Shown here piece after piece: positions 23,166 to 46,223 of a stretch of DNA of 64,000 nucleotides. Source of the DNA: Bacteroidales bacterium (GTDB lineage: Bacteria; Bacteroidota; Bacteroidia; Bacteroidales; UBA12077); NCBI GenBank assembly GCA_013138975.1, contig WTBR01000027.1, positions 201 to 64,200 of the forward strand, given 5' to 3'. The number at the start of each line of letters is the position of its first letter. Positions within the stretch are counted from its first letter, which is position 1. The notes under the pieces are model-generated. The model did not search any database, was not told the DNA's origin, and saw only the letters and a program-made list of their open reading frames with translations. Position numbers and translations under genes: made by a program.

Positions 23166-24857
23166 TTAGAAACTAAAATCACCTTCATCCAATAAAGTTG
23201 ATTTTAAACTACAAATTTCTTTAAACTCTTTATTTTCAGAAATTATGTCATTTCTATTTTGGAAATCGATTAATGAAGGAACAGCATTTTTATGTAATTT
23301 CATCCATCTTTCATCTGCAAATTGAATCTCATACAATGAATAAGGGTTAGGTATTCCAATATTTTTACAGTGTTCAACAAACCTTGAAACTCTATCATAT
23401 GTTTCCTTTCGAGACGGTTCACAATTTATAGTCCAAGATTCCATCATTAACATATCCTTTGCTTCTGCCGGATAAAGCAATTTTCTTTGTTTAACCCATT
23501 TTACTGAATCTGCTTGTCCCGTATATGCAAATATAAATGGGTTGCACTCTGTTTCCCAGATATAATTTCTCATTTCCGAAACAAAATCTAAGGTTTGTTG
23601 AAAATCTTTCTCTGTTTCTCCGGGGTGTCCTATGACTATATATGCAGTAGTTTTAATTCCAGCTTTTGCGAGAGCAGATAGGGTTCTTTTTGATTGTTCA
23701 ACTGTAATATTCTTCCCCATAAGATCAAGAACATTTTGAGAGCCACTTTCAATTCCAATTCTAGCGCGATAAAAACCCCCTTTTCTCCACTTAAGTGTAT
23801 TTTCAATTTTGCCACTCTCATCATCAACCCTTAAATAACCATCATAATATAACGATACATTCCTTGATATAAATTCTTTTGCCAAATCATCAATAATTGG
23901 ATTTAACAATGCATCATTCATGAAAAACATTTGATGCCCATACTTTTCATATAATTCAACCATTTCATCTACAGTTTGATCGACTGGTTTCTTTGTATAC
24001 TTTCCGTAAAATGTTGCTACATTACAAAAACTACATTGAAAAGGACAACTAGATGATCCTTGCGCTGCTAAATACGTATAATTTTGTCTGACATTGAAAT
24101 TACTCATATCCGGAAAATTCTCAAGAGACTCGTTTAGTTCTTTTTCACATATATCATTTAATGTAAAAACTTTCCGATCGTTAGGCAACTCTCCATTTAA
24201 TAATTTTAAGAATAAACCTTCACCTTTTCCAATTAAGATATTATCTATAAAAGGAGTTTTATCTATAAAATTCTTAAAATTGGGGGTGTCTTTGATTAGA
24301 TGATCCGAAAAGATACTTCCGCCCATTACGGTCATTATATTTGGATTTTTTTCCTTTATTAGTTTAAATATATATAATGATGGTGCAATTGTATCACGCA
24401 ATACAGAGATTCCCAATACATCAGGATTAAATTCATAAAATATTTTTAAAAAATAACTTTCTAATTGTTCAAAAAACTCATCTAGAATATTTTTTAATTC
24501 ATATAGAAATGATTCATCATTTTTGTAATAAAAGGTGTTAAATATTATAAGATCCAATAATTTGATATATTCGGTTTCATCAACATAATTAATATGAGCC
24601 ATCATATGATCTCTCATTACATTATGACCTAAATTATATAAATTACTAAGATTGTACTCAGGTATTGCATTTTTTAAGGTATTAAAATACCTGTCGTATA
24701 TTGATTTAAATTGACTCTCAATATTTGCATCTATTGTATAGACTGAGTGTCCATTTTTTTCGAGAGCACTTTTTAAATATGTAATTCCCTGTGGTGGAAT
24801 TAATGGTGTCCAGTATGGCAGTAAACCAAGCAGTACCTTCTTTTTATTATGTAACAT
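23166..24857 (-). CDS. B12-binding-domain-type (class B-like) radical SAM enzyme, stand-alone
   Basis: 563-aa ORF. N-terminal B12-binding-like region (VLLGLLPYWTPLIPPQGITYLKSALEKNGHSVYTIDANI...PDVLGISVLRD...TVMGGSIF...ILIGKGEGLFLKLL). CxxxCxxC motif SCPFQCSFC at 24024-24047. GFYRARIGIESGSQNVLDLMGK motif. Paralogue of 12794-14482. Confidence 0.85.
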   Translation of the reverse strand: MLHNKKKVLLGLLPYWTPLIPPQGITYLKSALEKNGHSVYTIDANIESQFKSIYDRYFNTLKNAIPEYNLSNLYNLGHNVMRDHMMAHINYVDETEYIKLLDLIIFNTFYYKNDESFLYELKNILDEFFEQLESYFLKIFYEFNPDVLGISVLRDTIAPSLYIFKLIKEKNPNIMTVMGGSIFSDHLIKDTPNFKNFIDKTPFIDNILIGKGEGLFLKLLNGELPNDRKVFTLNDICEKELNESLENFPDMSNFNVRQNYTYLAAQGSSSCPFQCSFCNVATFYGKYTKKPVDQTVDEMVELYEKYGHQMFFMNDALLNPIIDDLAKEFISRNVSLYYDGYLRVDDESGKIENTLKWRKGGFYRARIGIESGSQNVLDLMGKNITVEQSKRTLSALAKAGIKTTAYIVIGHPGETEKDFQQTLDFVSEMRNYIWETECNPFIFAYTGQADSVKWVKQRKLLYPAEAKDMLMMESWTINCEPSRKETYDRVSRFVEHCKNIGIPNPYSLYEIQFADERWMKLHKNAVPSLIDFQNRNDIISENKEFKEICSLKSTLLDEGDFSF

Positions 24858-32661: not shown

Positions 32662-35600
32662 TTAAGCATCAAATAAAGAATCTAATTCGTTTTGAGATAT
32701 CTCTTTGTAAGTAAAGTCACTTGGCGAATATTCTCGGTCATCTTTATTTAAACAAAAATTTATAATGTTATTTAGGCTTACATTAAAGTTTTGTATTAAG
32801 TTATTAATTACTGAATCAGAGAACTCTTTTTTACTGAATGTAGCACTAATTTCTAATCTATCTTTTATAATTATTCCTGTAAATCCAAGTTTAAATTGTC
32901 TTTTTTCATTATAATTTAGTAAATCCCCCATGTTTTCATACGATACTTTAAATGGCAAATTGCTTATATCTTCACCAAACTGCCCTAAGTAATTGAAAAA
33001 GATTTCTGGCAAAACAGTAGTACTATTATTATCTTTTTTCTCTGGAGTTGTTAAAAAGTTTAATATACCATAACCAATACCTTTATTAGGAATTTTATGT
33101 AAGTTTTCCTTAACGTTTTTTATGTGATCCGATAAATCATTAGATTCTTCAACATCAATAAAAATTGGAAATAATGATGTAAACCAACCCGTAGTTCTAC
33201 TTAAGTTTAATTCCTTAAAAATATCTTCTCTGCCATGCCCTTCCATTGCAATTGCTATTTTTTGCATTTTGAAAGTTTTGTTTAATCCTAAGCATAAACC
33301 CGTGATAAGTATATCATTTATATTTGTTCCAAAAGCATTATTTACTTTTGTTTTTAAATGGTGAGTAGTTTCTTTTGAAAGTGAAAAAGATATAGATCTT
33401 GAATCCAAAACACCGCTCTGTTCACTATTATTAATGTCTAATTTAATGGGATGAATTAAAGGTTTACTATTCCAATAATCAATTTGTTTAGAAAATTCTT
33501 CAGAATTAGCATAATCCTTTAATTTCTTTGCCCACAATCCGTATGAGGTTTCTTCTGAAATTATCTCTAGTTTTTCTTTGTTCATATACTGTTCATACAA
33601 CATTCCCATATCTTCCATAAGAATTCTCCACGATACTGTATCAATTGCCAGATGGTGAATAACGATAAGTATTCGGGTTTCTTTATGCAAATGAAATAAT
33701 CCAATTTTCATCATCGGACCTTTCCCCAAATCTATTCCTTGCTGGATAATGTTGGATTTTTCTTTTATATATTCCTCTGTATTTTCACATCCAACACAGT
33801 CAAATTTCAACAAAGATAAAGGAAGATCTCCTGAGAGAATTTCCGGTTGTATTATCCCATTAACATTTTTATATACCGTTTTTAAGCTATCATGTGTATT
33901 TTGAATTTTAAAAAACATTTCCGTTACCATTTTTTCGTCTAAAAAACCTTCTTTCGAAATAACAATTGATTGATTGAAATGATTTTTATGAATAATATGA
34001 TTACTGAAAAAATATTCTTGTATAGGAGTTAATGGTATTTTACCAACCATTTTAGAATTTGTGGTCTTTTTTATATTATGTAATATCTTAGATAAGTCTC
34101 TAATTGTTGGATATTCAAAAATATCTTTTATTTTTATTTGGTATCCCTCTCTATTTATTTTTGAAATCAACTGAATTGATTTTATTGAATCTCCGCCCAA
34201 TCTAAAAAAACTATCATCAATTCCCACTCCTTCTATTCCGAGTGTAGATTCATAAATATTAATGAGCATCTGATCACGATCGTTTCTTGGGGGCACATAT
34301 GTATCTTTTTTCAATAAATTTGGTAATGGCAAAGCCTTTTTATCCACTTTCCCATTAGAAGTTAAAGGAAAAACATCAAGTTTTGTAAAAAAAGCAGGAA
34401 TCATATATGTCGGAAGTTCATTTAATAGTTGGCTTTTTAAAACTTCCTCGTCAATTTGTAAATTTGAGAGATAATAAGCACTTATATATTTATCACCATG
34501 TGCATTGTATTTAATTGATACGGCGACATCTTTTATATCAACAAATTCCCTAATACGTTTTTCTATTTCGCTGAGCTCTATTCTATAACCTCTAATTTTA
34601 ACTTGCTCATCTTTTCTTCCTAAAAATTCAATATTACCATCATCTAACCAACTAACGATATCTCCAGTTTTATAGATAATATCATTATTCAAATAAGGGT
34701 TTTCTATAAAATTAGTTGATGTTAATTCCGGATTATTTAGATATCCTTTTGCAATTCCTATTCCTCCCAAACACATTTCCGCTGCAACACCTTTAGGTAC
34801 CAATTTTTCATTTCGAGGATCTAGAATATAAACTTTTGCGTTTGATATCGGTTTTCCAATTGGTATATTTTTAGAGTTTTTTTCTACTTTAAAACTTGTA
34901 CTTACAACTGTTCCTTCTGTTGGTCCATAATTATTAAATAATTCGTATGTAGAATTGATAGTTTGTAGTTTATCTCCTCCTGTAAGCAAACACCTTAAGT
35001 AATTTCCTTCTGAATTTTGAATAAACTGCTCACATATTGGAGTTGGTAAAAAGCTTATAGTTATTCCTCTTTTTTTAAATGTTTTATGAAGTAGATCAAC
35101 TTCCAATTTTATAGATTTATCTATTAATAAGATAGAAGATCCTTTTATTAAGTAAGGAAAAATCTCCCATACAGAAGCGTCAAATCCCAAACCTGCATAT
35201 TGAGTTGTTTTATCAAGGCTAGAAACTTCATAATAATCATTATGCCAGTGACATAAATTTGCTAATGACTCATGGCCAATTATCACACCTTTTGGAGTTC
35301 CAGTTGTTCCAGATGTATACGTTATGTAAGCCACGCTATTTTTATCATAATTTACAATTACATCATGATTTTTGTGTTTATTCAGTACTGATAAATCGTG
35401 TCTATTTTTATTCCTTTTAACATTTTTCTGAGTAATATTATTTTTATCAATCTTTAAAATTACATCATAACGATATTTTGTAAGTTCATTTTCTATACAA
35501 AATATCTTATCTGAGAACTGAATATTATTAATTTCGGAAAAATCAATAAATAAATCATTAAAAAACTGACGAGATAAAAATAATTCTTCTGAAAAACTTA

Positions 35601-37398
35601 ATTTTGTTCTATAGTCTTTATCTTCATTATTCTTTTTAAAATTTATTAAATCCTGTATCATTCTATCTTTCTGTTCCAGATCCATTATATCTCCCAGAAA
35701 TATCAATCCTTTGTTGCCTGTTAGTTTTATACAGCTTTTTATTACATTCCTTAAATAATTATGACCATGAAAAGCTTGAATAACACTATTTATAATAATT
35801 ATATCAAAATCATTTTCCAGTATTTTCTCAATATCATGAGCGGGCAAGCATTCTAATTTGATATTAACAATTTTATTTTTTACAATATATTCCCTATTCC
35901 AATCTAGAATACTTTCAGATAAATCTGTTCCATAATATGATTTCACTTTAGGAGAAATTCTGTACATACTGATACCAGAAGCACAACCAATTTCTAAAAC
36001 TTTAATGTTTTCATTTAAATATGGATCTATTTTTTTTAATACGTTATCACCATACTCATCCATTTCATCTCTGGAAAAAGGTTTACCTGTAAAACTATTT
36101 AACCAACCTCCTCCTGTTATATCATCTATTGCATTTTCACCTACATGTTCCCAAAGTTCCTTATTCATTAAATTACTTTTATCACTTTCTTCAACAGCAT
36201 CTATATCATAGGTATCTGTACATAAAAATGTTTCTAAACAATTGCATTGCCATTGCAACCTGTTTAAAAGCCTTATATGCATTTTTTGAGAAATGACAAT
36301 ACGAATATTAGCATCATCTATCATGAATTTCAACCTGTTCTCTGGCAAATCAGTAGGAAGAGGGACAAACGCACCTCCTGACTTTAAAATACCAATAAGT
36401 GCAACCATTCGGTCATATTCACTATCCATTAAAACTCCAACAGGTTGATTTTTTGATAATTTATGTTCATCAATTAGATAATTGGCCAATTTATTAGAAT
36501 CTGAATTTAACTGAGTATAGGTCCAAAAATTATTATTCTTTATGATTGCAATATTATCTGGAGTTTTTAACAATTGATCATAAAACAACTTTACCCAATT
36601 TTCATTATCTGAATGTTTAATCTTGTTTTCATTTAGCACAGTCACTAACTCATTCTTTTCAAATTCATTTAGAAAATCAATTTCATTAATAGTTAATTCA
36701 TCAGGATTAGCTAATCCTATTTCGAGAATATTAATGTAATGATTTACAATTTTATCAATTCTTCTTTCATTATATAATTGTGGATCATATTCGATATTTA
36801 ATTCCAGATTCTCTGATTCACGAAAAAAAGAAAAAATAAAATTTGACTTTATGGAATTTAAAGATTTTCTATCATGTATATTTTCTAATAAAATACTAAC
36901 AGAAACTAACTCTTTAGTAAAATTCTTATTTTGTTTTAAAAAAGCTATTACCGGAAAATTCTGATTCTTAGTAGCTTCAATGATTAATTGTTTTGTTTTT
37001 ATTAACAAACTTTTAAATGTTTCATCCTCATCAATTCGGTTTCTCACAATTAAGATTGAATTTAGAGCTTCTTTTAATTCTTTACGTTCAAGTACAGGAC
37101 AAGTAATACTTATATCATTTTTTCCTGAGTATCTATACAGTAAGATATTTAATATATTAGTAAGAATAGTAAATAACAAATGATCAGAATTATTACTTAA
37201 TTTAAAAATCTTCTCAGTAATTGTTTCATTAAATATGAACTGTTTCAGTTGCAAAGAATCTGAACTTTTATAAGAATTTCTGAGAAAACTACTAAATAAA
37301 AAATCCCCTGAAAGTACATTTTTCCAAAATTCCTTTTCTTGTTTTTTTTCACTAATCACCAATAAATCATTACCCATGTTATTTTCACTTTTCATCAT
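32662..37398 (-). CDS. NRPS subunit: half-C-A(Leu-like code, interrupted by a class I SAM methyltransferase between a2 and a3)-T-E
   Basis: 1578-aa ORF. N-terminal C-lobe only (EKEFWKNVLSGDF..., NDISITCPVL, KNQNFPV). a2 ILKSGGAFVP (~36361-36395). MT motif VLEIGCASG at 35974-36000, preceded by ELWEHVGENAIDDITGGGWLNSFTGKPFSRDEMDEYGD. a3 AYITYTSGTTGTPKGV (~35286-35331). Code DAW(S/F)LGNVVK. T FFRLGGDSIKS (Ser 34186-34188). E IVIHHLAIDTVSWRI (HH 33652-33657). COM-donor-like tail ...ISQNELDSLFDA. Confidence 0.92.
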   Translation of the reverse strand: MMKSENNMGNDLLVISEKKQEKEFWKNVLSGDFLFSSFLRNSYKSSDSLQLKQFIFNETITEKIFKLSNNSDHLLFTILTNILNILLYRYSGKNDISITCPVLERKELKEALNSILIVRNRIDEDETFKSLLIKTKQLIIEATKNQNFPVIAFLKQNKNFTKELVSVSILLENIHDRKSLNSIKSNFIFSFFRESENLELNIEYDPQLYNERRIDKIVNHYINILEIGLANPDELTINEIDFLNEFEKNELVTVLNENKIKHSDNENWVKLFYDQLLKTPDNIAIIKNNNFWTYTQLNSDSNKLANYLIDEHKLSKNQPVGVLMDSEYDRMVALIGILKSGGAFVPLPTDLPENRLKFMIDDANIRIVISQKMHIRLLNRLQWQCNCLETFLCTDTYDIDAVEESDKSNLMNKELWEHVGENAIDDITGGGWLNSFTGKPFSRDEMDEYGDNVLKKIDPYLNENIKVLEIGCASGISMYRISPKVKSYYGTDLSESILDWNREYIVKNKIVNIKLECLPAHDIEKILENDFDIIIINSVIQAFHGHNYLRNVIKSCIKLTGNKGLIFLGDIMDLEQKDRMIQDLINFKKNNEDKDYRTKLSFSEELFLSRQFFNDLFIDFSEINNIQFSDKIFCIENELTKYRYDVILKIDKNNITQKNVKRNKNRHDLSVLNKHKNHDVIVNYDKNSVAYITYTSGTTGTPKGVIIGHESLANLCHWHNDYYEVSSLDKTTQYAGLGFDASVWEIFPYLIKGSSILLIDKSIKLEVDLLHKTFKKRGITISFLPTPICEQFIQNSEGNYLRCLLTGGDKLQTINSTYELFNNYGPTEGTVVSTSFKVEKNSKNIPIGKPISNAKVYILDPRNEKLVPKGVAAEMCLGGIGIAKGYLNNPELTSTNFIENPYLNNDIIYKTGDIVSWLDDGNIEFLGRKDEQVKIRGYRIELSEIEKRIREFVDIKDVAVSIKYNAHGDKYISAYYLSNLQIDEEVLKSQLLNELPTYMIPAFFTKLDVFPLTSNGKVDKKALPLPNLLKKDTYVPPRNDRDQMLINIYESTLGIEGVGIDDSFFRLGGDSIKSIQLISKINREGYQIKIKDIFEYPTIRDLSKILHNIKKTTNSKMVGKIPLTPIQEYFFSNHIIHKNHFNQSIVISKEGFLDEKMVTEMFFKIQNTHDSLKTVYKNVNGIIQPEILSGDLPLSLLKFDCVGCENTEEYIKEKSNIIQQGIDLGKGPMMKIGLFHLHKETRILIVIHHLAIDTVSWRILMEDMGMLYEQYMNKEKLEIISEETSYGLWAKKLKDYANSEEFSKQIDYWNSKPLIHPIKLDINNSEQSGVLDSRSISFSLSKETTHHLKTKVNNAFGTNINDILITGLCLGLNKTFKMQKIAIAMEGHGREDIFKELNLSRTTGWFTSLFPIFIDVEESNDLSDHIKNVKENLHKIPNKGIGYGILNFLTTPEKKDNNSTTVLPEIFFNYLGQFGEDISNLPFKVSYENMGDLLNYNEKRQFKLGFTGIIIKDRLEISATFSKKEFSDSVINNLIQNFNVSLNNIINFCLNKDDREYSPSDFTYKEISQNELDSLFDA
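35420..36180 (-). other. Embedded class I SAM-dependent methyltransferase (NRPS M-domain type) in the a2-a3 loop
   Basis: The a2-to-a3 spacing is ~345 aa, against ~68 aa in uninterrupted A domains of this window. SAM-binding motif VLEIGCASG. The W..S..G.P....EM.E motif is typical of NRPS M domains. Confidence 0.8.
36703..37398 (-). other. N-terminal truncated condensation domain (C-terminal lobe only)
   Basis: Residues ~15-232 are homologous to the other two half-C regions and to the C-terminal halves of full C domains. There is no HHxxxDG. The upstream gap is 80 nt. Confidence 0.7.
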
Positions 37399-37478: not shown

Positions 37479-40400
37479 CTAAAAAGAGAAGTTCGAATCT
37501 GAAAAAGATGAATCACTTACTATCATTTCTGTTGATAGCTTTATATCCTTCAGTAAAATATTTTTATCCTCAATAACCTGATTAAAAATCTTTTCTAAAT
37601 AATTTCCAATCTGCTCTATAAACAATTGCGAATAAGCATTTTTATTATATTTAAAAGATACTACCATTTCATCTTCATCAAATATTCTAATATCCATATC
37701 ATAATTTGTTGGATCAGAAATTTCAATTTTGTCAACTTTAATTTCGTTATTGGCTGAATTGTATAAATTAGTATCAGAAATATCTAATTTCTGATAATTT
37801 TGAAATCCCAAAATATGATCAAAAAGTTTTTCTTCAGAGGATTTCATCTTATTAATTTTATCTAATGGGAAATGGTGATGAATTTCACTTTCTAAAGCTT
37901 TTGACTGAATCTTTTTAATCAATTCAATAAAACTAGATTCTAGTTCTAATTGAATTCTTACTGGAATTGTATTAATAAATAATCCTAAAATTGATTCTAC
38001 TCCACTAATTTCAGAGGATCTACCTGAAACAACTATTCCAAATATAACATCTAATTTATCATTAAGCTTTGAAAGCAATAATCCCCACACTGCATGAAAT
38101 AATGTATTTAGTGTTACTTGAGCATTATTAGAAATCTGTTTTAAAATCGTTGTATTTTGATTTCCAAGAGAAATCTTATAATTCCCTTCATCATAAGCGA
38201 TCAATTCAGGTTCTGTTTTCTTATAATGTGATAGACTAGAGTTTTGTTTAAAGCCATCTAAATATTTACTCCAAAATTGTTCACTTTCGTTACTTTCAAG
38301 TTTATTAATCCATTTAATATAGTTTTTGTATTGTGTTGGATGTTCTAGACTAATTTTTCTACCAAGAGTTAATTGCCCATAAATCTCAGTTAATTCTTTT
38401 ACAATAATTCCAATACACCATCCGTCCATTAAAATATGATGAAAACTCCATACTAACTTATAATTTTGTTCAGCAGTTTTAAAAACATATACTCTCATTA
38501 GAACGTCCTTGCTTAAATCAAATGATTTTTCCTTATCATTCTTCATCAATTTATCGATCAATAATTCTTTCTCATTTTTATCATATATTTCAGTCAAATC
38601 TTGATAATTAAATTCAATTTTTCGTTCTTTTAAAACAACTTGCAAAGGAAGATCAACGTTTTCGTGAACAAATACAGTTCTTAATATATCATGTCTTTCA
38701 ATAATTTTATTAAAACTATTTCTTAGAACTTCGATTTTTAGATCCCCAGAAAGTGGTATCACAGATTGAATATTATATGAAGGAGATGTTTCGTATAATG
38801 AATGAAATAAAATACCTTCTTGTAATGGTGCTAACCTATAAATATCTTCAATATCAAATTTTGCACTTAAGTGATCCAGATCGTGAATGGGTAATCCCTT
38901 ATAAGTTAAATCTGATGGTGTTAATATTTTATCAGGAACATTAATGCAATGACTTATAATATCTTCCAAAGACTTCTGGTAATTATTAAGTAAGCTAAGA
39001 ACAAATTCCTCAGTGTAATATTTCTTCTTATAATTAAGAGAAATTGATAATTTACCACCTGCAAGTATACAAATGACTGAAAAATCCGAATTTGTAGTTC
39101 TATTTAAACTAACTGAATCACCGCTACTTTCATCTGCCATTCTAAACTTAGTCATTTGTGCAACATCTGAGTCAAATTGACCTAAGTAGTTGAACTCAAC
39201 ACCCATTTTATCATCAAACTGCATATCTTCCTTTAATTCTTCTGGCGTTAAGTATTTTAGAATACCATAACCAATCCCTTTTTGAGGCACTTGACGCAAG
39301 CTCTCTTTAACTTGTCTTAATTGTAATGATAGGTTATCTATTTGTCTCACATCAAGCAATACAGGATAAGCAGATGTAAACCAACCAATTGTTCTACTTA
39401 CATCAATATCTGGAAAAATATCTTCGCGACCGTGTCCTTCAAGATAAACAAGTACTTTTTCATTACCAAAAGTTTTTCGAATACTAGAACCTAATCCACA
39501 AAGAAGAATATCATTTATTTCTGTTCCATACGCTTGGTTTGTTTGAGTTATTAACTGAGTAGTTGTTTTCTCATCAAGAGAAAACTGCATGCTCGCTCTT
39601 TCGTTAATTTTTATATTTTCATGATTAAGATCTCGTTTTAACGGTAAAACCTCTTGATTAACAATTTCATTCCAAAATTCTTTTTGTTTTAGAATCTGAT
39701 CACTTTCTGCATATTTTGTTAATTTTTCAGACCAATCTTTAAATGAGTTGTTTTTTAATGGTAATGAAAGTGCTTGTCCTTTTTTTGCTTGTTCGTAAAG
39801 CATTTCTATATCTTCAAATATAATTCTCCATGAAACTCCATCAGTTACAAGATGGTGAATTACAATTAATAATCTATCTCCATCATCTAAGTGAAATAAT
39901 CCTAACTTCATTAGCGGTTCATTTTCTAAATCTATTGATCTTTGAATTTGATTAGCATAAGCTGTTAATTTCTCTTTAGCTTCACTCTCACCTTCAAGAT
40001 TGTATATGTTAAGTGAGATTGGAAAATCTTCTATTCCTTTATTATATAAACTAAAGCTTCCCTTATTTCTTTTACTTACAATTCTTAAAGCATCATGATG
40101 ATCCTGTAGTTTTCTAAATACCTCTTTTAAAATATTCTCATCAATTCTTTCTTCTGAAAACAACATTACGGACTGATTAAAATGGTGCATATCAATTTGA
40201 TTTTCAAAGAAAAAATGCTGTATAGGAGTTGGCTTAATATCACCACTTACATTATCTTGTGAAACTTCCTTTGTTTTCAATTTTACCTTAGTTGCCAAAC
40301 ATGAAATAGTTGGATTTTCAAATATTTCATTAACTCTAATAAGATAACCTTTCTCACTCATTTTTGCTTGTAACTGAATCGCTTTTATTGAATCACAACC

Positions 40401-43400
40401 CAAATTAAAAATATTATTATTAATTCCAATTTTATCAATACCAAGCACAAACGACCACGCTTCTGCTAACTTCTTCTCTATTTCATTTCTTGGAGCAACA
40501 AAATCATCTAATGCAACTTCAGGTTCAGGCAATGAATTCTTATCTACCTTTCCATTAATTGTTACAGGAATATTATCCATTTCAACAAAATATGTTGGAA
40601 CCATATAATCAGGCAACATGCTGCTCAAATGTTTCCTTAAGCTAGCTGCGCTTATTTCTGTAGTACTTTTTACTTCGGTAGCACCTTCTAATTCATGATA
40701 TAATCCTTTATAAAACTCATTACTTTTATGTGATTTAATAAAATGAGACATGTCGCAATTAAAATTAATATTCTCATCATTTTCCCTATGTAATGTTCCT
40801 TTAATTTTATAATCTGAATTTAATTCATTCTCATTAATATTACGAATTATGCTAGCTCTTATATAATCATTTTTAGATACTCTTATACCATCTTGGAAAA
40901 CTGGCACATAAACAGGTAACCAACAATATTCATTCTCAATAATATTTATTATTTCTTCATTTGTAATATGTAAATTTAACCACAATAAAAATCCATTAAT
41001 GTTAGAATCATTTTCAATAACTAAATGAATTTCATGTGATTGATTTACATCAATAATTTTCGTGTAATCAAGATCCTCAAACACATCAACACTTGAAATT
41101 ATTCTTTCTTTAGGGAAATTACGAACACATAATCTGATATCACTTTTATATTCTAAGTAATTGAAAACTTTATTGAAATATTCTTTCGTTTGAGAAGTTA
41201 ATAAATGATCTTCATTCCAATTTACCGGAAATGTGACAGCAGCAATTTTTGTTACACTTCTTTGCGGAATGATTTGTGCATTTTCTTTTATCAGATGACG
41301 TGTTTTATTTAAAATTATAGATGCACCCTCCGATCCTCCAATTGATCCAACGATTTCGGATAAGTGTACATCTGCTTTTTCAGGTAATTCAACCTTTGTT
41401 GCATCACCATGTATAATTATTATTTTATCTTGTAGTCCTAATTTTTCAATTTGTCTTTTTGCTTCTTTATAACTCTTCTCAAGTAATTCTATTGCATATA
41501 CTTTCTTTGCACCAGCCTCAATACAAAATCTAGCGAGAATAGCATCTCTACCTGTTCCAACATCTACGACAATTTTATCTTTAACACATTTCTGAATACC
41601 AATCTGATAACTCTTATTTCTTAACTCATCATTTGTCATTGCATGATAAAGTAATTCATCGTAAATATAATATTCACTAATAGATGGCCATATTTCAATA
41701 TCATTTGTAACATACTTTGTAAAATAAGCGCTTAAATAACTTTGTTTTTGATTGTCTTCCTTAGCTACCACAACAGCTTCTTTAATATATGGAAGTTTCA
41801 ACATTTGATTCTCAATTTCTCCTGTTTCAATTCTAAAGCCTCGTATTTTTACCTGTTGATCAATTCTACCTACCAATTGAATATTTCCATCAGATGACCA
41901 TTTGGCTTGATCTCCCGTTTTATAGAGTATTCCTTTGCCAAATGGATTTTTTATGAATTTTTCTTCTGTTAACTCAACATTATTCAGATATCCTTTGGCC
42001 AATCCTACGCCTCCAATACATAGTTCTCCTGATACACCAATAGGTTGTATATTTCCACTCTTATCAAGTATAAATAGAGATGTATTTGAAATTGGCTTCC
42101 CAATTTTAATAACACTATTGAGTTCCTGATTTCGATACATTGCAGATAGTACAGAACTCTCAGATACTCCGTATTCATTTACTATTTCAATATCTATGTT
42201 CTTTTCTTTAGTTTTTTCTATTGTACCATAATTTAACATATCCCCAGCCAGTGTGACAACCTGCAAGGAACTATTCGTTCCATCAGACATATTTTCAATT
42301 ATTGTATTATAGAGCTGAGGTATGCTAATAAAGTGTGTGACTTGATGTTGCTTTAGTATTGAATTTATATATTCTGGTTCAATAATTTTATTTTTTTCAA
42401 TAAATATTGTTTTCGAACCAGAAATCATAGGTGTAAAGAAGCTTGTAATAAATCCATCGAAGCCAAACGAAAACAATTGAAGAGAAACAGATTTTTCATC
42501 CATTTTATACTCATTTTTTCGGTGTAATAAAGTATTAACTATACTGTTATGATCTACAATCGTTCCTTTTGGGAATCCTGAAGTTCCAGATGTATATATA
42601 CTATAAGCTGTATTTGTAGGTTCTGAATCAATACCAATTTTATTAAAATCTAAAATATCGTCATTCTCAAAATCGAACAAATCATAATATATAGGTTTCA
42701 CATTTTGGTCTCTAATTTTCTTTATATCTTTCCTAAATATTAATCCATTTATTTTTTCTAATTCATCTACATTCGGCAATTGTTTGTTATTTTCAATTAT
42801 TTTCCCAATTAATTCTGAAAAAGTTATTTCCCCTTCACCGTATACAACTACATCAACATTAGAATCTTCAAGTAAAGTATTATAATCACTTGAAGCATAT
42901 GGCCCTCCAGTAATAATTGGTACATTATAACCGAGATTTCGTATAATAGATATTGTTTTATGAAAAAACTCTTTAAAATATGTTAAAGTTCTTATTCCGA
43001 TCACGTCAGGTTTAAACTCATCTAATAATTCTCTGAATTCCTGATAACTATCAAAATCTATCCTAGATTTTAATATTTTACCATTTACTTTTCTTCCAAA
43101 TTCTTTATTTATTTGAGTTAATAAATACACTAAACCTAATGGAGGATCCACAACATCATCAATATTCTTTGAATTGCTAGTAAAAAATTGAGATAAGTCT
43201 AAGAGTAAGACTCTTAAAGCATCCTTATCTTTATCTTTATCTTTATGAATAAATAACTTCGTTTTAATTAACTCATCCAAATTTGGTACTAGATAAGTAT
43301 CATCAGGCAATGGTTGTAGTCCATTCAATTCACTTTCTTCAATATTAAATATATCTAACAAATCACTGAACTTCTTAATTTTGTTCGGTAAATAACTACT

Positions 43401-46223
43401 ATAAACTTGGATAAGTTCTTTTTCAGTAAACGCGGCTAATTGATGAGGGAGAACAGCCAAAAGTCTATCTTTTGACAAAAAATAATTGTTTAAAAAATCT
43501 CCTTGATATTTCTTAGTAAAAACCTTATCGAAAGGTAATGTGTCGGGTAACTCATTATATGCGAATTTTACTGAATTTTCAATATCAATTTTTCTAACGC
43601 CATTTTCTAGTGCTAGTTTTTCCATTTCAGTATTAGGAAAAATCTTTAAGATAAAGATAAATGGAAAATGTAATGTTTTAATACTTTTAATGAAATTAAG
43701 TGTTTTGGTTGCTTCTTCTTCCGTTTCAGAAGGGAATCCATGCATAGTATACAACCTCAAAATTACTTGAGGGTATTTTGATGTAAAATATTTAATATTT
43801 TTATATAACTTATCAATATTAAGATTCTTTTTTATTAATTTCTGGAGTCTTGGAGAAGCTGTTTCAAGTGCAAGAGCAAGACCAACTAAACCAGCTTTGA
43901 CCATTAAATCAATGTAGTCCTCAGTTAAAATATCGCCCCTCAAACCATTCGGAAAGAAAAGTTGAATCTTTAATCCATTTTCTATTATTAAATTAAAAAA
44001 CCTAGTACTATTTTTTATATTTAAATTAAAAATATCATCAATAAAAGAAAATCTTCGAACTCCAATATTGTAATACATTAAGACTTCTTCAAATATATTT
44101 TCTGCTGAACGAATAATATTTTTCTTTGGCCAAATTTTATGACAATAAGTACATTTGTAAGGACATCCTCTTGTTGCAAGAATATTAATTCCGTTATTAA
44201 TCATTCCTAGACCTATGTATTTACTGTATTCATTATTATTAATGAATGATCTATCCGGAAACGGTAAGGAATCTAAGTCAGTTATTTGCTCTCTGTTATT
44301 TGTAATTATTATATCCTCATTCAAACTTTTTTCTTGATATAAACTTGAAGGTATTAAATCGCTTTCAGACAACAAAAAATTCACATTTGCGTCTTTTAAC
44401 ATATATTTTATCCTTTCCTCTGGATAATCAGAATCAATTGGCAAGAAAGCATTTCCTGATTTTAAAACAGCAAATAATGAAATTCCTATTTGTAAGGGAT
44501 TTTCAAGTATTATTGCAATAATTTCATTTTTAATATTTTTTTTACTAATAAGACTAGCTAATCGATCAGATTTAACATTTAATTCTCTATATGTTAGTTT
44601 TTCATTTTTATATAAAAGAGCTTCTCCATCTGGATTTTTCTCTACCTGCTCTTCAAATAATTGATGAATTGTACTTTTTCTAGAATAGTCATTATTAGTA
44701 TTGTTAAAATCAAATAACAACTGTTGTTTTTCTTCATTAGAAATTATTACAATCTCAGAGATTGGTATATCTATTCCACTATTTATTTGATTTATGATAT
44801 TTTTAAAAAATATGATAAAGCGATCAATGGTTTCCTTTTTAAATAATTGAGTGTAATATTCAAAATTTAAGACTAAATAATCATCAAACTCTGATACCGA
44901 CAGAACTAAATCAGCTTTTGACACACTTTCTACATGCGAACCTATATTTTTTAATGTAAATAAATTATCAGGCTGATTATCATTATTATGAAAATTAAAC
45001 CCTATTCCAGAAATGGCATTATTGCTTTCATTTCTTTTTATTGCTACTTTAGTTACTAAATCATCAAGGGGGTATTCTTGATTTGCAAAAGTTTCCAGAG
45101 TATCGTTTTTTATTATTTCAATAAACTCCTTAATAGTTATTTCTGGAGACAAGTTATTTCTAAAGAATATAGTATTAACAAACATTCCTGATATTGAACT
45201 TAGCTGTGCATGTGTTCTACCATTCGTTACTGAACCAATTATAATATCTCTCTTTCCACTAATCTTTGACAAAAAGATGTTGTAAATTGCTAACAAACTC
45301 ATATAAATAGTAGTACCGCATTCTGTAGAAATTTGTCTTATAGAATCGGTTTCTTCCTTATTTAATAAGAAATTAACATTAGCTCCATTATAATTTACTG
45401 TTTTCTTGGTTTCAAAATTATCAGATAAATTAAGAGTGGTCCATTCTTTCGAAAATTTGTTCGTCCAGAATTTTTCTTGTAATTTAATTCGATCCTTTTG
45501 TTCTTTGCAATTTAACCATTCCGAATAATCAATATATCCCAATGGTAACTGTTTCAATTCTTTATTATCAAATAATCTGGTAAATTCACGTTTAACAATA
45601 TTAAGCGAAAAGCTATCACTTATTATATGGTGCATATCAACAAACAATATTTTCTCATTCGAATTACATGTAATTAGTTTAGCTCGAAATAAAGGTGCTT
45701 TGTTTAAATCGAAAGGTTTAATAAATTCAAGTTTTGCCTTCTCAACATCTTCCTTTTGCAAAAAGCTCTCAATAATCTCCAATTTAACGTTCTTGTTAAT
45801 TTTTTGAACAATTTCACCATCAATTATATCAAAACTTGTTTTAAAACTATCGTGTCTCGAAATCAGCTTTTCAAATACTTTTATTACCAATTTAAGATCT
45901 GTATTAAATGGAAGATTTATCGCCTTTGATATATTGTAAGCAATACTTTGTAGATCTTGTTCCTGTGTTAAATACAATCGTTGTTGTGCCGGGGTTATTC
46001 TATAATATTCTTTTTTTTCAGCTTTTTTAATTGTTTTAGACAATGCTTTGTTTTGTCTTTGTTTATTAAGATAACTTATCAATGAATCCCTATTTTCAGA
46101 GATCTCTTTTTTAAGTGCATTATTAAGAACTCCGCTAGGAGCAGTTACATCTATTTTATCATTTTTTATATTCAACTGAATATTCAATTTATTCAATTTA
46201 ATTAAAAGGTTTGAAGTACTCAT
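37479..46223 (-). CDS. NRPS subunit: dock-C-A(Tyr-like code; doubly interrupted by radical SAM/B12-like unit and PRMT-like methyltransferase)-T-E-C(DCL)
   Basis: 2914-aa ORF whose ATG overlaps the upstream TGA (ATGA at 46220-46223). C1 MHHIISDSFS (HH 45627-45632). a2 AVLKSGNAFLPID (44433-44471). Radical SAM motif CPYKCTYC (44142-44165). a3 TAYSIYTSGTSGFPKGT (42561-42611). a5 NEYGVSE. a8 GRIDQQVKIRGFRIETGEIE (~41811-41870). MT motif VVDVGTGRDAILA (41533-41570). a9/a10 LPDYMVP...INGKVDK (~40540-40616). T FNLGCDSIKA (Ser 40389-40391). E IVIHHLVTDGVSWRI (HH 39852-39857). C2 SFHHILMDGWC (HH 38436-38441). The protein ends ...SDSNFSF. Confidence 0.92.
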   Translation of the reverse strand: MSTSNLLIKLNKLNIQLNIKNDKIDVTAPSGVLNNALKKEISENRDSLISYLNKQRQNKALSKTIKKAEKKEYYRITPAQQRLYLTQEQDLQSIAYNISKAINLPFNTDLKLVIKVFEKLISRHDSFKTSFDIIDGEIVQKINKNVKLEIIESFLQKEDVEKAKLEFIKPFDLNKAPLFRAKLITCNSNEKILFVDMHHIISDSFSLNIVKREFTRLFDNKELKQLPLGYIDYSEWLNCKEQKDRIKLQEKFWTNKFSKEWTTLNLSDNFETKKTVNYNGANVNFLLNKEETDSIRQISTECGTTIYMSLLAIYNIFLSKISGKRDIIIGSVTNGRTHAQLSSISGMFVNTIFFRNNLSPEITIKEFIEIIKNDTLETFANQEYPLDDLVTKVAIKRNESNNAISGIGFNFHNNDNQPDNLFTLKNIGSHVESVSKADLVLSVSEFDDYLVLNFEYYTQLFKKETIDRFIIFFKNIINQINSGIDIPISEIVIISNEEKQQLLFDFNNTNNDYSRKSTIHQLFEEQVEKNPDGEALLYKNEKLTYRELNVKSDRLASLISKKNIKNEIIAIILENPLQIGISLFAVLKSGNAFLPIDSDYPEERIKYMLKDANVNFLLSESDLIPSSLYQEKSLNEDIIITNNREQITDLDSLPFPDRSFINNNEYSKYIGLGMINNGINILATRGCPYKCTYCHKIWPKKNIIRSAENIFEEVLMYYNIGVRRFSFIDDIFNLNIKNSTRFFNLIIENGLKIQLFFPNGLRGDILTEDYIDLMVKAGLVGLALALETASPRLQKLIKKNLNIDKLYKNIKYFTSKYPQVILRLYTMHGFPSETEEEATKTLNFIKSIKTLHFPFIFILKIFPNTEMEKLALENGVRKIDIENSVKFAYNELPDTLPFDKVFTKKYQGDFLNNYFLSKDRLLAVLPHQLAAFTEKELIQVYSSYLPNKIKKFSDLLDIFNIEESELNGLQPLPDDTYLVPNLDELIKTKLFIHKDKDKDKDALRVLLLDLSQFFTSNSKNIDDVVDPPLGLVYLLTQINKEFGRKVNGKILKSRIDFDSYQEFRELLDEFKPDVIGIRTLTYFKEFFHKTISIIRNLGYNVPIITGGPYASSDYNTLLEDSNVDVVVYGEGEITFSELIGKIIENNKQLPNVDELEKINGLIFRKDIKKIRDQNVKPIYYDLFDFENDDILDFNKIGIDSEPTNTAYSIYTSGTSGFPKGTIVDHNSIVNTLLHRKNEYKMDEKSVSLQLFSFGFDGFITSFFTPMISGSKTIFIEKNKIIEPEYINSILKQHQVTHFISIPQLYNTIIENMSDGTNSSLQVVTLAGDMLNYGTIEKTKEKNIDIEIVNEYGVSESSVLSAMYRNQELNSVIKIGKPISNTSLFILDKSGNIQPIGVSGELCIGGVGLAKGYLNNVELTEEKFIKNPFGKGILYKTGDQAKWSSDGNIQLVGRIDQQVKIRGFRIETGEIENQMLKLPYIKEAVVVAKEDNQKQSYLSAYFTKYVTNDIEIWPSISEYYIYDELLYHAMTNDELRNKSYQIGIQKCVKDKIVVDVGTGRDAILARFCIEAGAKKVYAIELLEKSYKEAKRQIEKLGLQDKIIIIHGDATKVELPEKADVHLSEIVGSIGGSEGASIILNKTRHLIKENAQIIPQRSVTKIAAVTFPVNWNEDHLLTSQTKEYFNKVFNYLEYKSDIRLCVRNFPKERIISSVDVFEDLDYTKIIDVNQSHEIHLVIENDSNINGFLLWLNLHITNEEIINIIENEYCWLPVYVPVFQDGIRVSKNDYIRASIIRNINENELNSDYKIKGTLHRENDENINFNCDMSHFIKSHKSNEFYKGLYHELEGATEVKSTTEISAASLRKHLSSMLPDYMVPTYFVEMDNIPVTINGKVDKNSLPEPEVALDDFVAPRNEIEKKLAEAWSFVLGIDKIGINNNIFNLGCDSIKAIQLQAKMSEKGYLIRVNEIFENPTISCLATKVKLKTKEVSQDNVSGDIKPTPIQHFFFENQIDMHHFNQSVMLFSEERIDENILKEVFRKLQDHHDALRIVSKRNKGSFSLYNKGIEDFPISLNIYNLEGESEAKEKLTAYANQIQRSIDLENEPLMKLGLFHLDDGDRLLIVIHHLVTDGVSWRIIFEDIEMLYEQAKKGQALSLPLKNNSFKDWSEKLTKYAESDQILKQKEFWNEIVNQEVLPLKRDLNHENIKINERASMQFSLDEKTTTQLITQTNQAYGTEINDILLCGLGSSIRKTFGNEKVLVYLEGHGREDIFPDIDVSRTIGWFTSAYPVLLDVRQIDNLSLQLRQVKESLRQVPQKGIGYGILKYLTPEELKEDMQFDDKMGVEFNYLGQFDSDVAQMTKFRMADESSGDSVSLNRTTNSDFSVICILAGGKLSISLNYKKKYYTEEFVLSLLNNYQKSLEDIISHCINVPDKILTPSDLTYKGLPIHDLDHLSAKFDIEDIYRLAPLQEGILFHSLYETSPSYNIQSVIPLSGDLKIEVLRNSFNKIIERHDILRTVFVHENVDLPLQVVLKERKIEFNYQDLTEIYDKNEKELLIDKLMKNDKEKSFDLSKDVLMRVYVFKTAEQNYKLVWSFHHILMDGWCIGIIVKELTEIYGQLTLGRKISLEHPTQYKNYIKWINKLESNESEQFWSKYLDGFKQNSSLSHYKKTEPELIAYDEGNYKISLGNQNTTILKQISNNAQVTLNTLFHAVWGLLLSKLNDKLDVIFGIVVSGRSSEISGVESILGLFINTIPVRIQLELESSFIELIKKIQSKALESEIHHHFPLDKINKMKSSEEKLFDHILGFQNYQKLDISDTNLYNSANNEIKVDKIEISDPTNYDMDIRIFDEDEMVVSFKYNKNAYSQLFIEQIGNYLEKIFNQVIEDKNILLKDIKLSTEMIVSDSSFSDSNFSF
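40674..41714 (-). other. Embedded PRMT-like (protein arginine methyltransferase fold) SAM methyltransferase in the a8-a9 loop
   Basis: EYYIYDELLYHAMTNDELRNKSYQIGIQKCVKDKIVVDVGTGRDAILARFCIEAGAKKVYAIE...IIIIHGDATKVELPEKADVHLSEIVGSIGGSEG parallels PRMT1 (YF.SY...IHEEMLKD.VRT..Y...I......KVVLDVGSGTGIL..FAAKAGA.KV.GIE...V..I.GK.EEVELP..KVDIIISEWMGY.L.YESM). A beta-barrel-like C-terminal part follows. The a8-to-a9 spacing is ~418 aa, against ~72 aa in an uninterrupted domain of this window. Confidence 0.7.
42774..43220 (-). other. B12-binding-like Rossmann domain embedded in the A domain (C-terminal to the radical SAM core)
   Basis: ALRVLLLDLSQ...VDPPLGLVYLLTQINKEFG...FKPDVIGIRTLTYF...NVPIITGGPYASSDY...VDVVVYGEGEITFSELIGK follows the pattern of the N-terminal domains of the two stand-alone radical SAM proteins (PP.G...L; PDV.GI; .GG; .GEGE..F..L). 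Confidence 0.6.
43524..44246 (-). other. Radical SAM core embedded in the A domain (a2-a3 loop)
   Basis: ILATRGCPYKCTYCHKIW, with Cys687/691/694 at 44142-44165. Downstream elements match a radical SAM TIM barrel: FIDDIFNLN, GLVGLALALETASPRLQKLIKKN (the GxxxxxxGxES element) and LYTMHGFPSETEEE. Confidence 0.8.
46056..46223 (-). other. TubC-type N-terminal docking region
   Basis: MSTSNLLIKLNKLNIQLNIKNDKIDVTAPSGVLNNALKKEISENRDSLISYLNK. The upstream subunit ends ...DTNIENFEL. Confidence 0.6.

Follow-up and report, generated by a model that had tools for sequence, protein, structure and literature searches.

A Doubly Interrupted Adenylation Domain Carrying a Permuted Cobalamin-Type Radical SAM Unit and a Candidate Tyrosine O-Methyltransferase with a PRMT-Like Fold

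A single adenylation (A) domain of a nonribosomal peptide synthetase (NRPS) encoded on contig WTBR01000027.1 (GenBank assembly GCA_013138975.1, deposited as Bacteroidales bacterium) is interrupted twice, by ~525 amino acids (aa) between motifs a2 and a3 and by 347 aa between motifs a8 and a9. The stretch that was analyzed, referred to here as the window, comprises 64,000 nucleotides (positions 201 to 64,200 of the contig), and all coordinates are positions within it. The a8-a9 insert is the principal subject of this study. With a probability of about 0.7, judged from sequence and a predicted structure, it is a functional S-adenosylmethionine (SAM)-dependent tyrosine O-methyltransferase of type III that possesses the fold of the protein arginine methyltransferases (PRMTs) and is lodged in the a8-a9 loop of a tyrosine-activating A domain. 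The a2-a3 insert resembles cobalamin-dependent radical SAM (rSAM) methylases, and the pairing of the two units in one A domain appears to be undescribed in the literature that was searched.

Results

A PRMT-Fold Methyltransferase in the a8-a9 Loop

The limits of the second insert were established by scanning the protein for conserved A-domain motifs. Motif a8 was located at aa 1452-1471 (GRIDQQVKIRGFRIETGEIE). The starts of a8 and a9 are separated by 418 aa; in those A domains of the window that have no insertion the spacing is 67-70 aa, and ~350 residues therefore are extra. The added stretch is 347 residues in length (aa 1504-1850; 40674..41714, minus strand), matching the location given in the initial annotation of this DNA. 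The PRMT motifs quoted in that annotation also were all found in the insert, namely the N-terminal Y..Y region (Y..YDELLYHAMTNDELRNKSY), SAM-binding motif I, the string AGAKKVYAIE, and a double-acidic loop.

The relationship of the insert to PRMTs was assessed by profile, sequence, and structure comparisons. The insert matched the Pfam family PRMT5 (PF05185) with an E-value of 2.7e-8 (34.3 bits, where the gathering cut-off is 22.9), and its tail produced weak matches to the Pfam families of the PRMT β-barrel. When the insert was compared by phmmer with the Protein Data Bank (PDB), all 60 matches listed were arginine methyltransferases: PRMT6 was the best at 1.7e-16, the others included CARM1, PRMT3, PRMT1, PRMT7, PRMT8, PRMT9, PRMT2, and PRMT5, and one chain among them was deposited as 'PUA domain-containing protein'. 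An AlphaFold2 model built from an alignment of 61 homologous sequences attained a pLDDT (predicted local distance difference test) of 94.3 and a pTM (predicted template modeling score) of 0.92. The best 50 matches of this model to the PDB in Foldseek were without exception PRMT6 or CARM1, with E-values of about 5e-25, TM scores of about 0.7, and about 335 aligned columns that covered both the Rossmann domain and the β-barrel. The model contains a single helix (residues 174-187) in a location that may correspond to the dimerization arm of PRMTs. The resemblance of the insert to PRMTs is far beyond chance, and the agreement of Pfam, phmmer, and AlphaFold2 with Foldseek upholds the initial proposal of a PRMT-fold methyltransferase at a8-a9. 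Profile and structure searches had been advised at that stage as a means of distinguishing PRMTs from ordinary NRPS methyltransferase (M) domains, and the best matches were PRMTs. An assignment of the insert as an ordinary NRPS N-methyltransferase was rejected: no sequence similarity was detectable between the insert and the type V M domain encoded by the next gene in the window, and the best 50 Foldseek matches included no structure of an NRPS M domain.

The SAM-binding and double-E residues that characterize the family are preserved. SAM-binding motif I (VVDVGTGRDA; 41541..41570, minus strand) includes two glycine residues, G53 and G55 in insert numbering, that are invariant in the 61-sequence family alignment. 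Residues D29, R32, E76, G103, E120, and E129 likewise are fully invariant or reach at least 90% conservation in the alignment, and all eight residues are intact in the insert. Residue D104 also is intact, and is retained in 40 of 41 family members that are linked to tyrosine-type A domains. The loop SEIVGSIGGSEG (41325..41360, minus strand), whose Glu-1623 and Glu-1632 are conserved in the family alignment, probably is the catalytic and substrate-binding double-E loop, and the E-x8-E spacing of its glutamates is that of PRMT1. The sequence WLPVYVP (40902..40922, minus strand), recognized by motif match, is in a region that presumably coincides with the 'THW' loop of PRMTs, judging from the THW sequence of PRMT1. 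The insert reads Tyr-Cys-Trp at this position; across the family the tryptophan is invariant, but the histidine is replaced by cysteine or serine.

In sum, the insert and the eukaryotic type I PRMTs (PRMT6, CARM1/PRMT4, PRMT1, and PRMT3) have in common a Rossmann domain followed by a β-barrel, the N-terminal Y..Y...H..M..D..R helix, motif I, an acidic post-I residue, the E-x8-E double-E loop, and the conserved tryptophan of the THW loop. They differ in that the structure-based identity is only ~18%, in the substitution of the THW histidine, in the embedding of the insert within an NRPS domain whereas PRMTs are free-standing, and in the predicted methyl acceptor, which would be the phenol of a carrier-bound tyrosine (O-methylation) instead of a protein arginine.

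Assignment to the Type III M Domains

Interrupted A domains have been arranged in seven families and their M domains in six types (Lundy, Mori and Garneau-Tsodikova, RSC Chem Biol 2020; PMC8341866). Type III, designated Ms(O,Tyr,a8-a9), consists of domains of 350±10 aa in interrupted A-domain families 2b and 5b, and its representatives ThxA2, DidJ, and VatN are associated with tyrosine that is O-methylated or N,O-dimethylated, the dimethylated residue being cited for DidJ (PMC8341866). The insertion follows an L(V/A/I)(A/G)(Y/F) boundary and four motifs are characteristic: motif i, V(V/L)(E/D)(I/V)GxGxxA; motif ii, GD..x..(L/I)PEx(A/V)(D/E)xC(V/I)SEI(V/I/F)GxI; motif iii, (I/V)FxxxxxxFDLR; and motif iv, WLPV(F/Y)(F/L)P (PMC8341866). 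The insert in the window begins after the boundary sequence YLSAYF that follows a8, at the a8-a9 site of type III, and its length of 347 aa is within the published range. The four motifs occur in the published order and are near-consensus rather than exact. Motif i (VVDVGTGRDA) shows no deviation, motif ii (GDATKVELPEKADVHLSEIVGSI) has two (C to H and V/I to L), motif iii (VFNYLEYKSDIR) also has two (F to S and L to I), and motif iv (WLPVYVP) has one (F/L to V).

Searches of plasmid sequences by tblastn produced nearly gap-free alignments with domains in clusters whose products are known. One such domain, with 48.8% identity to the insert over 336 aa, is on plasmid pNsp_c of Nostoc sp. ATCC 53789, within the cryptophycin cluster, in an NRPS that is located after a polyketide synthase (PKS) and before P450, TauD-like, and PanD genes, which is the position of CrpC. 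The insert is 38.2% identical to a domain on pTM3 of Tistrella mobilis. As pTM3 is the didemnin megaplasmid, this domain was taken to be that of DidJ; motif a10 is situated ~465 aa past the methyltransferase in this protein, a distance that could accommodate the type I M domain, the second one in proteins of family 5b. The A domains at the CrpC position and in the presumed DidJ possess the DAST-type codes DASTIAGIG and DASTLAAVC, respectively. Unit B of cryptophycin is 3-chloro-O-methyl-D-tyrosine (PMC6835634).

As the site, the size, the four motifs, and the homology to the CrpC-position and presumed DidJ domains all fit, the insert is assigned on its sequence to the type III M domains that already are catalogued, and is not a new kind of methyltransferase. 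The suggestion in the initial annotation that a PRMT-like unit is foreign to the a8-a9 site has to be given up accordingly, since domains of this kind are listed there as type III M (PMC8341866) and PRMT similarity was noted for LynB3 (PMC10127204). LynB3 and LynB5 possess presumed tyrosine O-methyltransferase domains, that of LynB3 inside an A domain, with ~30% similarity to PRMTs (PMC10127204). The classification itself makes no mention of arginine methyltransferases, and the words 'radical' and 'arginine' appear nowhere in its text; the position of the acidic SAM-binding residue of type III M was termed uncertain until a structure is solved (PMC8341866). The insert shares with ThxA2, DidJ, VatN, LynB3/LynB5, and the CrpC-position domain the a8-a9 site, the size, the four motifs, a host A domain with a putative tyrosine-type code, and a PRMT-like fold. 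It differs from them in four respects: an rSAM unit also interrupts its host A domain, at a2-a3; the host has a DGTI-type and not a DAST-type code; motifs ii-iv bear single-residue deviations; and it derives from a low-GC (about 27-29%), probably Bacteroidota, genome outside the phyla named for these families in PMC8341866.

The family to which the insert belongs is large and is found in varied contexts. A scan of reference genomes (GTDB) revealed at least 559 loci related to the insert, none above 53% identity, and the domain occupies the a8-a9 slot in about 55 of the best 80. A metagenome scan gave just two loci, both distant, and a look-up of the exact protein was without a match. Other relatives are placed between condensation (C) and A domains in the order C, methyltransferase (MT), A, and thiolation (T), as in L027 (8186-16843), L031 (1750-6207), and L032 (5375-15892). 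A PKS loading module of L016 (6194-16948) reads A-MT-ACP-KS-AT (ACP, acyl carrier protein; KS, ketosynthase; AT, acyltransferase), and L003 has the same layout with the MT recognized by tblastn only. The arrangement in L019 (3931-9261) is MT-A-KR-ACP (KR, ketoreductase), and a stand-alone relative from Nostoc (P0001) is accompanied by a TubC-type docking domain. The published classification deals with embedded M domains only, and the C-MT-A, PKS-loading, and stand-alone contexts were not found there (PMC8341866).

Specificity Code and Predicted Site of Methylation

The code of the host A domain was read by alignment as D-G-T-I-T-A-E-V-L(-K), identical at nine of ten positions to DGTITAEVAK, a Stachelhaus code for tyrosine. 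The host code therefore is provisionally regarded as tyrosine-type. Specificity codes could be extracted for 53 of the a8-a9-embedded relatives in reference genomes, and in 30 of these the host A domain has a DAST[VI/T]AAV[CG]-type or near-identical code. When these relatives were combined with embedded relatives from an exhaustive protein search (see below), 41 methyltransferases were paired with a tyrosine-type code of either the DAST or the DGTI type, and the first glutamate of the double-E loop (SEIVG) is kept in every one of them. The variant [SA]NQ[IC]G of this loop, by contrast, accompanies only the non-tyrosine codes DVMNFGIIN, DPENIG.ID, and DAENIGAVT. The signature of the insert in the window (SEIVG, GGSEG, and YCWLPV) is of the tyrosine type. 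M domains with the NQ variant, in which the first glutamate is changed to asparagine, were observed in L075 (6068-12880) and in representatives P0364, P0366, P0414, P0416, P0377, and P0486, and probably act on a different acceptor.

The acceptor is not fixed by family membership alone; it is the active-site signature and the host code together that lead to O-methyl-tyrosine as the predicted product. Homology to the CrpC- and DidJ-position domains, added to the covariation with A-domain codes, points to oxygen as the methylated atom. Thus, although the initial annotation stated that the regiochemistry could not be deduced from the sequence, it can be predicted with fair confidence, from the host code, the covariation, and the homologues, as O-methylation of the phenol of a carrier-bound tyrosine. 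That the reaction would take place on the carrier-bound thioester is suggested by published work on other interrupted A domains.

Layout of the Host A Domain and the Permuted Radical SAM Insert

The insert is part of an NRPS of 2914 aa (37479..46223, minus strand) that is specified by one intact, uninterrupted open reading frame (ORF), in a window in which all large ORFs are on the minus strand and the GC content is 25-35%. According to its translation and its Pfam and NCBIfam domains, the protein has a TubC-type docking domain and a C domain, then the twice-interrupted A domain and a T domain, and finally epimerization (E) and C domains. Motif scanning and translation divided the A domain into an N-terminal piece (44277..44666, minus strand) with a1 (LTYREL, aa 543) and a2 (LKSGNAFLPID, aa 587); a core (41715..42701, minus strand) that extends from a3 (aa 1210) through a5 (aa 1349), a6 (aa 1399), and a7 (aa 1434) to a8 and includes the specificity pocket; and a C-terminal piece (40509..40673, minus strand) with a9 (LPDYMVP, aa 1870) and a10 (NGKVDK, aa 1890). 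The thiolation (carrier) domain follows (40293..40472, minus strand; Pfam PP-binding, aa 1918-1977), with its serine at ~aa 1945 inside LGCDSI (aa 1941-1946). The next domain (38868..40256, minus strand), which has HHLVTDG at aa 2123, probably is an E rather than a C domain in view of its match to TIGR01720 (aa 2298-2452). The module thus reads C-A(rSAM)(M-III)-T-E before another C domain, and its residue probably enters the peptide in the D configuration, as does unit B of cryptophycin.

The first interruption (aa 650-1174; 42702..44276, minus strand) is a cobalamin-type rSAM unit of ~525 aa that was recognized by Pfam, BLAST, and NCBIfam. A Radical_SAM domain (aa 683-845, with CPYKCTYC at aa 687) precedes a B12-binding domain (aa 1027-1138) in the Pfam matches. 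BLAST comparisons established that this order is swapped relative to that in two proteins encoded elsewhere in the window at 23166-24857 and 12794-14482 (both minus strand). These are stand-alone, canonical B12-binding rSAM proteins of 563 and 562 aa, respectively, with 43% mutual identity, whose genes are interleaved with the NRPS genes. In NCBIfam, residues 2-233 of the first insert aligned with positions about 246-479 of a class B profile, and residues 384-525 with the N-terminal B12 region of KedN5 (positions 17-157) and HpnR. The insert was below every cut-off of the curated NCBIfam families, with class B methylases as the best matches. Its sequence indicates that it is circularly permuted relative to the canonical class B enzymes.

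More than 2000 homologues of the first insert were detected (E ≤ 1e-10), and among 120 listed most are stand-alone proteins of about 540-580 aa. The permutation probably was not created by the insertion event: such stand-alone proteins align with 98-100% of the insert, with about 50-59% identity, and for this reason they presumably share the permuted order. The insert resembles cobalamin rSAM C-methyltransferases such as PoyB/PoyC, CysS, and DscE of discodermin (PMC12858407) in the combination of an rSAM core with a B12-binding domain, but differs in its embedding within an A domain, in the permuted order, and in falling below the curated cut-offs. No description of rSAM-interrupted A domains was found in the literature that was searched. 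The first insert would most likely methylate a carbon of the tethered residue that is predicted to be O-methylated, in a step independent of that reaction. The stand-alone B12-rSAM proteins in the window, in conjunction with a similar gene at locus L075, suggest that the peptide product may be heavily C-methylated.

Recurrence of the Double Interruption

The exhaustive search was conducted with HMMER using aa 650-1849 as query against 1.84 billion representatives of clusters at 50% identity, and the best 150 representatives were analyzed. The rSAM unit, A core, and type III M domain are collinear in the window protein and in 13 others, which are 33-59% identical to it over the three segments and 41-54% identical in the methyltransferase domain. 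By comparison, 78 A domains possess an rSAM insert only and 11 an M domain only. All ten of the 13 di-interrupted representatives that were looked up derive from metagenomes or metagenome-assembled genomes (MAGs) and have generic names, for example Ca. Aminicenantes UCH92154.1. The L075 protein, from a Ca. Aminicenantes MAG, provides a further example that is 41% identical to the window protein over 2241 aa, and a canonical B12-rSAM gene (4114-5868) adjoins its NRPS gene. As the 13 other representatives and L075 are collinear with the window protein, the architecture is not an assembly artifact.

The codes of A domains with the rSAM insert only are diverse, and include Thr-, Leu-, Ile-, Pro-, Val-, Glu/Gln-, Asp/Asn-, Ser-, and Lys-type codes, which marks this insert as a general tailoring module that is not tied to methoxy groups. 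Tyrosine-type (DGTI) A domains in turn occur with the rSAM unit only (P0433), with the methyltransferase only (P0485), or with both. The code pattern is most plausibly explained by two independent modifications, a C-methylation and an O-methylation.

The initial view of the domain as naturally di-interrupted holds for the radical SAM/B12 unit at a2-a3 and the methyltransferase at a8-a9; A domains interrupted twice already were known, however, in families 5 and 7. These are the sole di-interrupted kinds in the classification: in family 5 (ColG, DidJ, and VatN) a pair of class I M domains stands in tandem within a8-a9, and family 7 combines a type V M domain at a2-a3 with a type VI M domain at a6-a7 (PMC8341866). 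The A domain in the window fits neither layout. As in families 5 and 7, one A domain hosts two auxiliary catalytic units for one tethered residue, and as in family 7 two separate loops are occupied, one of them a2-a3. The A domain in the window departs from these families in having a cobalamin-type rSAM unit of ~525 aa, and not a class I methyltransferase, at a2-a3 and in using a8-a9 as its second site.

Other Features of the Window

The M domain in the next gene (gene 32662-37398; M domain 35329-36201, minus strand) contains GGWLNSF and VLEIGCASG, which are motifs of type V backbone N-methyltransferases. The initial annotation correctly separated this domain from the a8-a9 insert but had it at a8-a9, whereas it is located between a2 (aa 338) and a3 (aa 694), and on its sequence the A domain of this gene is assigned to family 4 (A2MbA3).

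An odd A domain is encoded at aa 538-1529 of gene 2795-10138 (minus strand). Motifs a1-a2 (aa 538-600) and the segment from a4/a5 to a10 with the T domain (aa 1208-1529) align normally, and the halves are separated by ~600 aa that contain an Acyl_transf_1 match (aa 838-1123). No recognizable a3 P-loop was present in this A domain, which may be acyltransferase-interrupted and perhaps inactive. The end of the cluster is marked by a gene for an ABC permease of the MacB/FtsX type (271-2643, minus strand) whose nearest named relatives, at 58-63% identity, are in Bacteroidales/Bacteroidetes MAGs.

Discussion

The observations can be assembled into a scheme in which the A domain would adenylate L-tyrosine and load it onto the downstream carrier domain, whose phosphopantetheine arm would deliver the tyrosyl thioester to the inserted methyltransferase. 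The double-E loop of PRMTs holds the guanidinium group of arginine. In the insert, the loop with Glu-1623 and Glu-1632 instead would position and deprotonate the phenol, and transfer of the methyl group of SAM to the phenolic oxygen would give an O-methyl-tyrosyl thioester on the T domain. The permuted cobalamin rSAM unit at a2-a3 would add a C-methyl group to the same residue, which then would be inverted by the E domain, and the predicted building block is C-methyl-O-methyl-D-tyrosine. The rSAM chemistry in this scheme we infer in its entirety.

The principal alternatives concern the acceptor. The insert might methylate a nucleophile other than the phenol, either the α-amine, which would amount to backbone N-methylation, or a group on a substrate other than tyrosine; this is unlikely, even though PRMTs are N-methyltransferases, some relatives are paired with non-tyrosine codes of which certain look basic, and the assignment of the DGTI-type code is provisional. 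The methyltransferase of the window carries the tyrosine-linked SEIVG/CW signature and not the NQ variant, and unit B of cryptophycin is O-methylated but is not known to be N-methylated. In 29 kb of the cryptophycin cluster, excluding the upstream PKS (crpA) and the halogenase gene, no second methyltransferase is annotated, and in family 5b N-methylation requires a further domain, of type I (PMC8341866). That the insert is a genuine arginine N-methyltransferase acting on a peptide arginine is scarcely credible. Such an enzyme would be in keeping with the PRMT fold and with the double-E loop, in which the E-x8-E spacing is that of PRMTs, but the THW histidine is replaced, the host code matches that for tyrosine and is without the acidic pocket residues typical of arginine, lysine, and ornithine codes, and among relatives whose products are known the closest are associated with O-methyl-tyrosine.

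The two inserts also could be coupled chemically, the methyltransferase producing O-methyl-tyrosine and the rSAM unit methylating the methoxy carbon, possibly repeatedly, to yield an O-ethyl or O-isopropyl ether. CysS reportedly extends methoxy groups in this way after O-methylation on carrier-bound substrates in cystobactamid biosynthesis, and the two enzymes reside in one A domain in a pairing that recurs in 13 other representatives. Coupling nevertheless is quite unlikely: 78 A domains among the best 150 representatives have the rSAM insert without any methyltransferase, so that its usual substrate cannot be a methoxy group, and the occurrence of tyrosine-type A domains with either unit or both suggests independent modules. 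An inactive relic that is kept for structural purposes is a still more improbable description of the a8-a9 insert. The small departures from the published motifs might be read in this manner, and the case for activity is built on sequence and a model. The SAM-binding and double-E residues with a family-wide conservation of at least 90% are all intact, however; the ORF is uninterrupted; the model is a confident one of a complete PRMT-like structure; and whole-domain identities of 41-54% to the 13 di-interrupted relatives indicate purifying selection.

Tyrosine O-methylation by a type III M domain is the reading preferred here, and several observations weigh against it. The insert lacks the catalytic histidine of the PRMT THW loop, and motifs ii-iv contain minor substitutions relative to the consensus in the literature (Cys to His, Phe to Ser, and Phe/Leu to Val). 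The equation of DGTI with tyrosine is provisional, and a text search of the literature for the code DGTITAEVAK was without result. Among the 53 embedded relatives in reference genomes, 11 have DVE[DNS]..-type codes that resemble those for basic residues, and the DVMNFGIIN and DPENIG.ID codes among the di-interrupted relatives reveal that the family is not confined to tyrosine. With relatives also in C-MT-A, PKS-loading, and stand-alone contexts, membership of the family is not enough to settle the substrate, and in a distance tree the methyltransferase of the window groups, on long branches, with the non-tyrosine member L075.

Most of the novelty is in the first interruption, by the rSAM unit, and in its pairing with the type III M domain, and not in the PRMT-fold insert. 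The pair could represent an unclassified eighth family of interrupted A domains in uncultured bacteria (Bacteroidota-like and Aminicenantes) in which an rSAM unit and a PRMT-fold methyltransferase both act on one carrier-bound tyrosine, a proposal for which the balance of evidence is even. If it is true, one domain would combine adenylation, loading, radical C-methylation, and O-methylation to produce C-methyl-O-methyl-tyrosine; in a rarer reading, the two units together would make an O-alkyl ether in CysS-like fashion.

The insert supplies evidence from a structural model and from sequence that type III NRPS O-methyltransferases possess a PRMT fold in which the double-E loop is retained. The association of SEIVG with tyrosine codes, as opposed to the NQ variant with other codes, provides a usable rule for the prediction of tyrosine O-methylation. 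The combination with an rSAM unit widens the range of naturally multifunctional A domains beyond those with class I methyltransferases, ketoreductases, and oxidases, and a large set of uncharacterized NRPS modules with rSAM interruptions is indicated in anaerobic, uncultured bacteria. Such modules would be of interest for genome mining and for the engineering of multiply methylated peptides.

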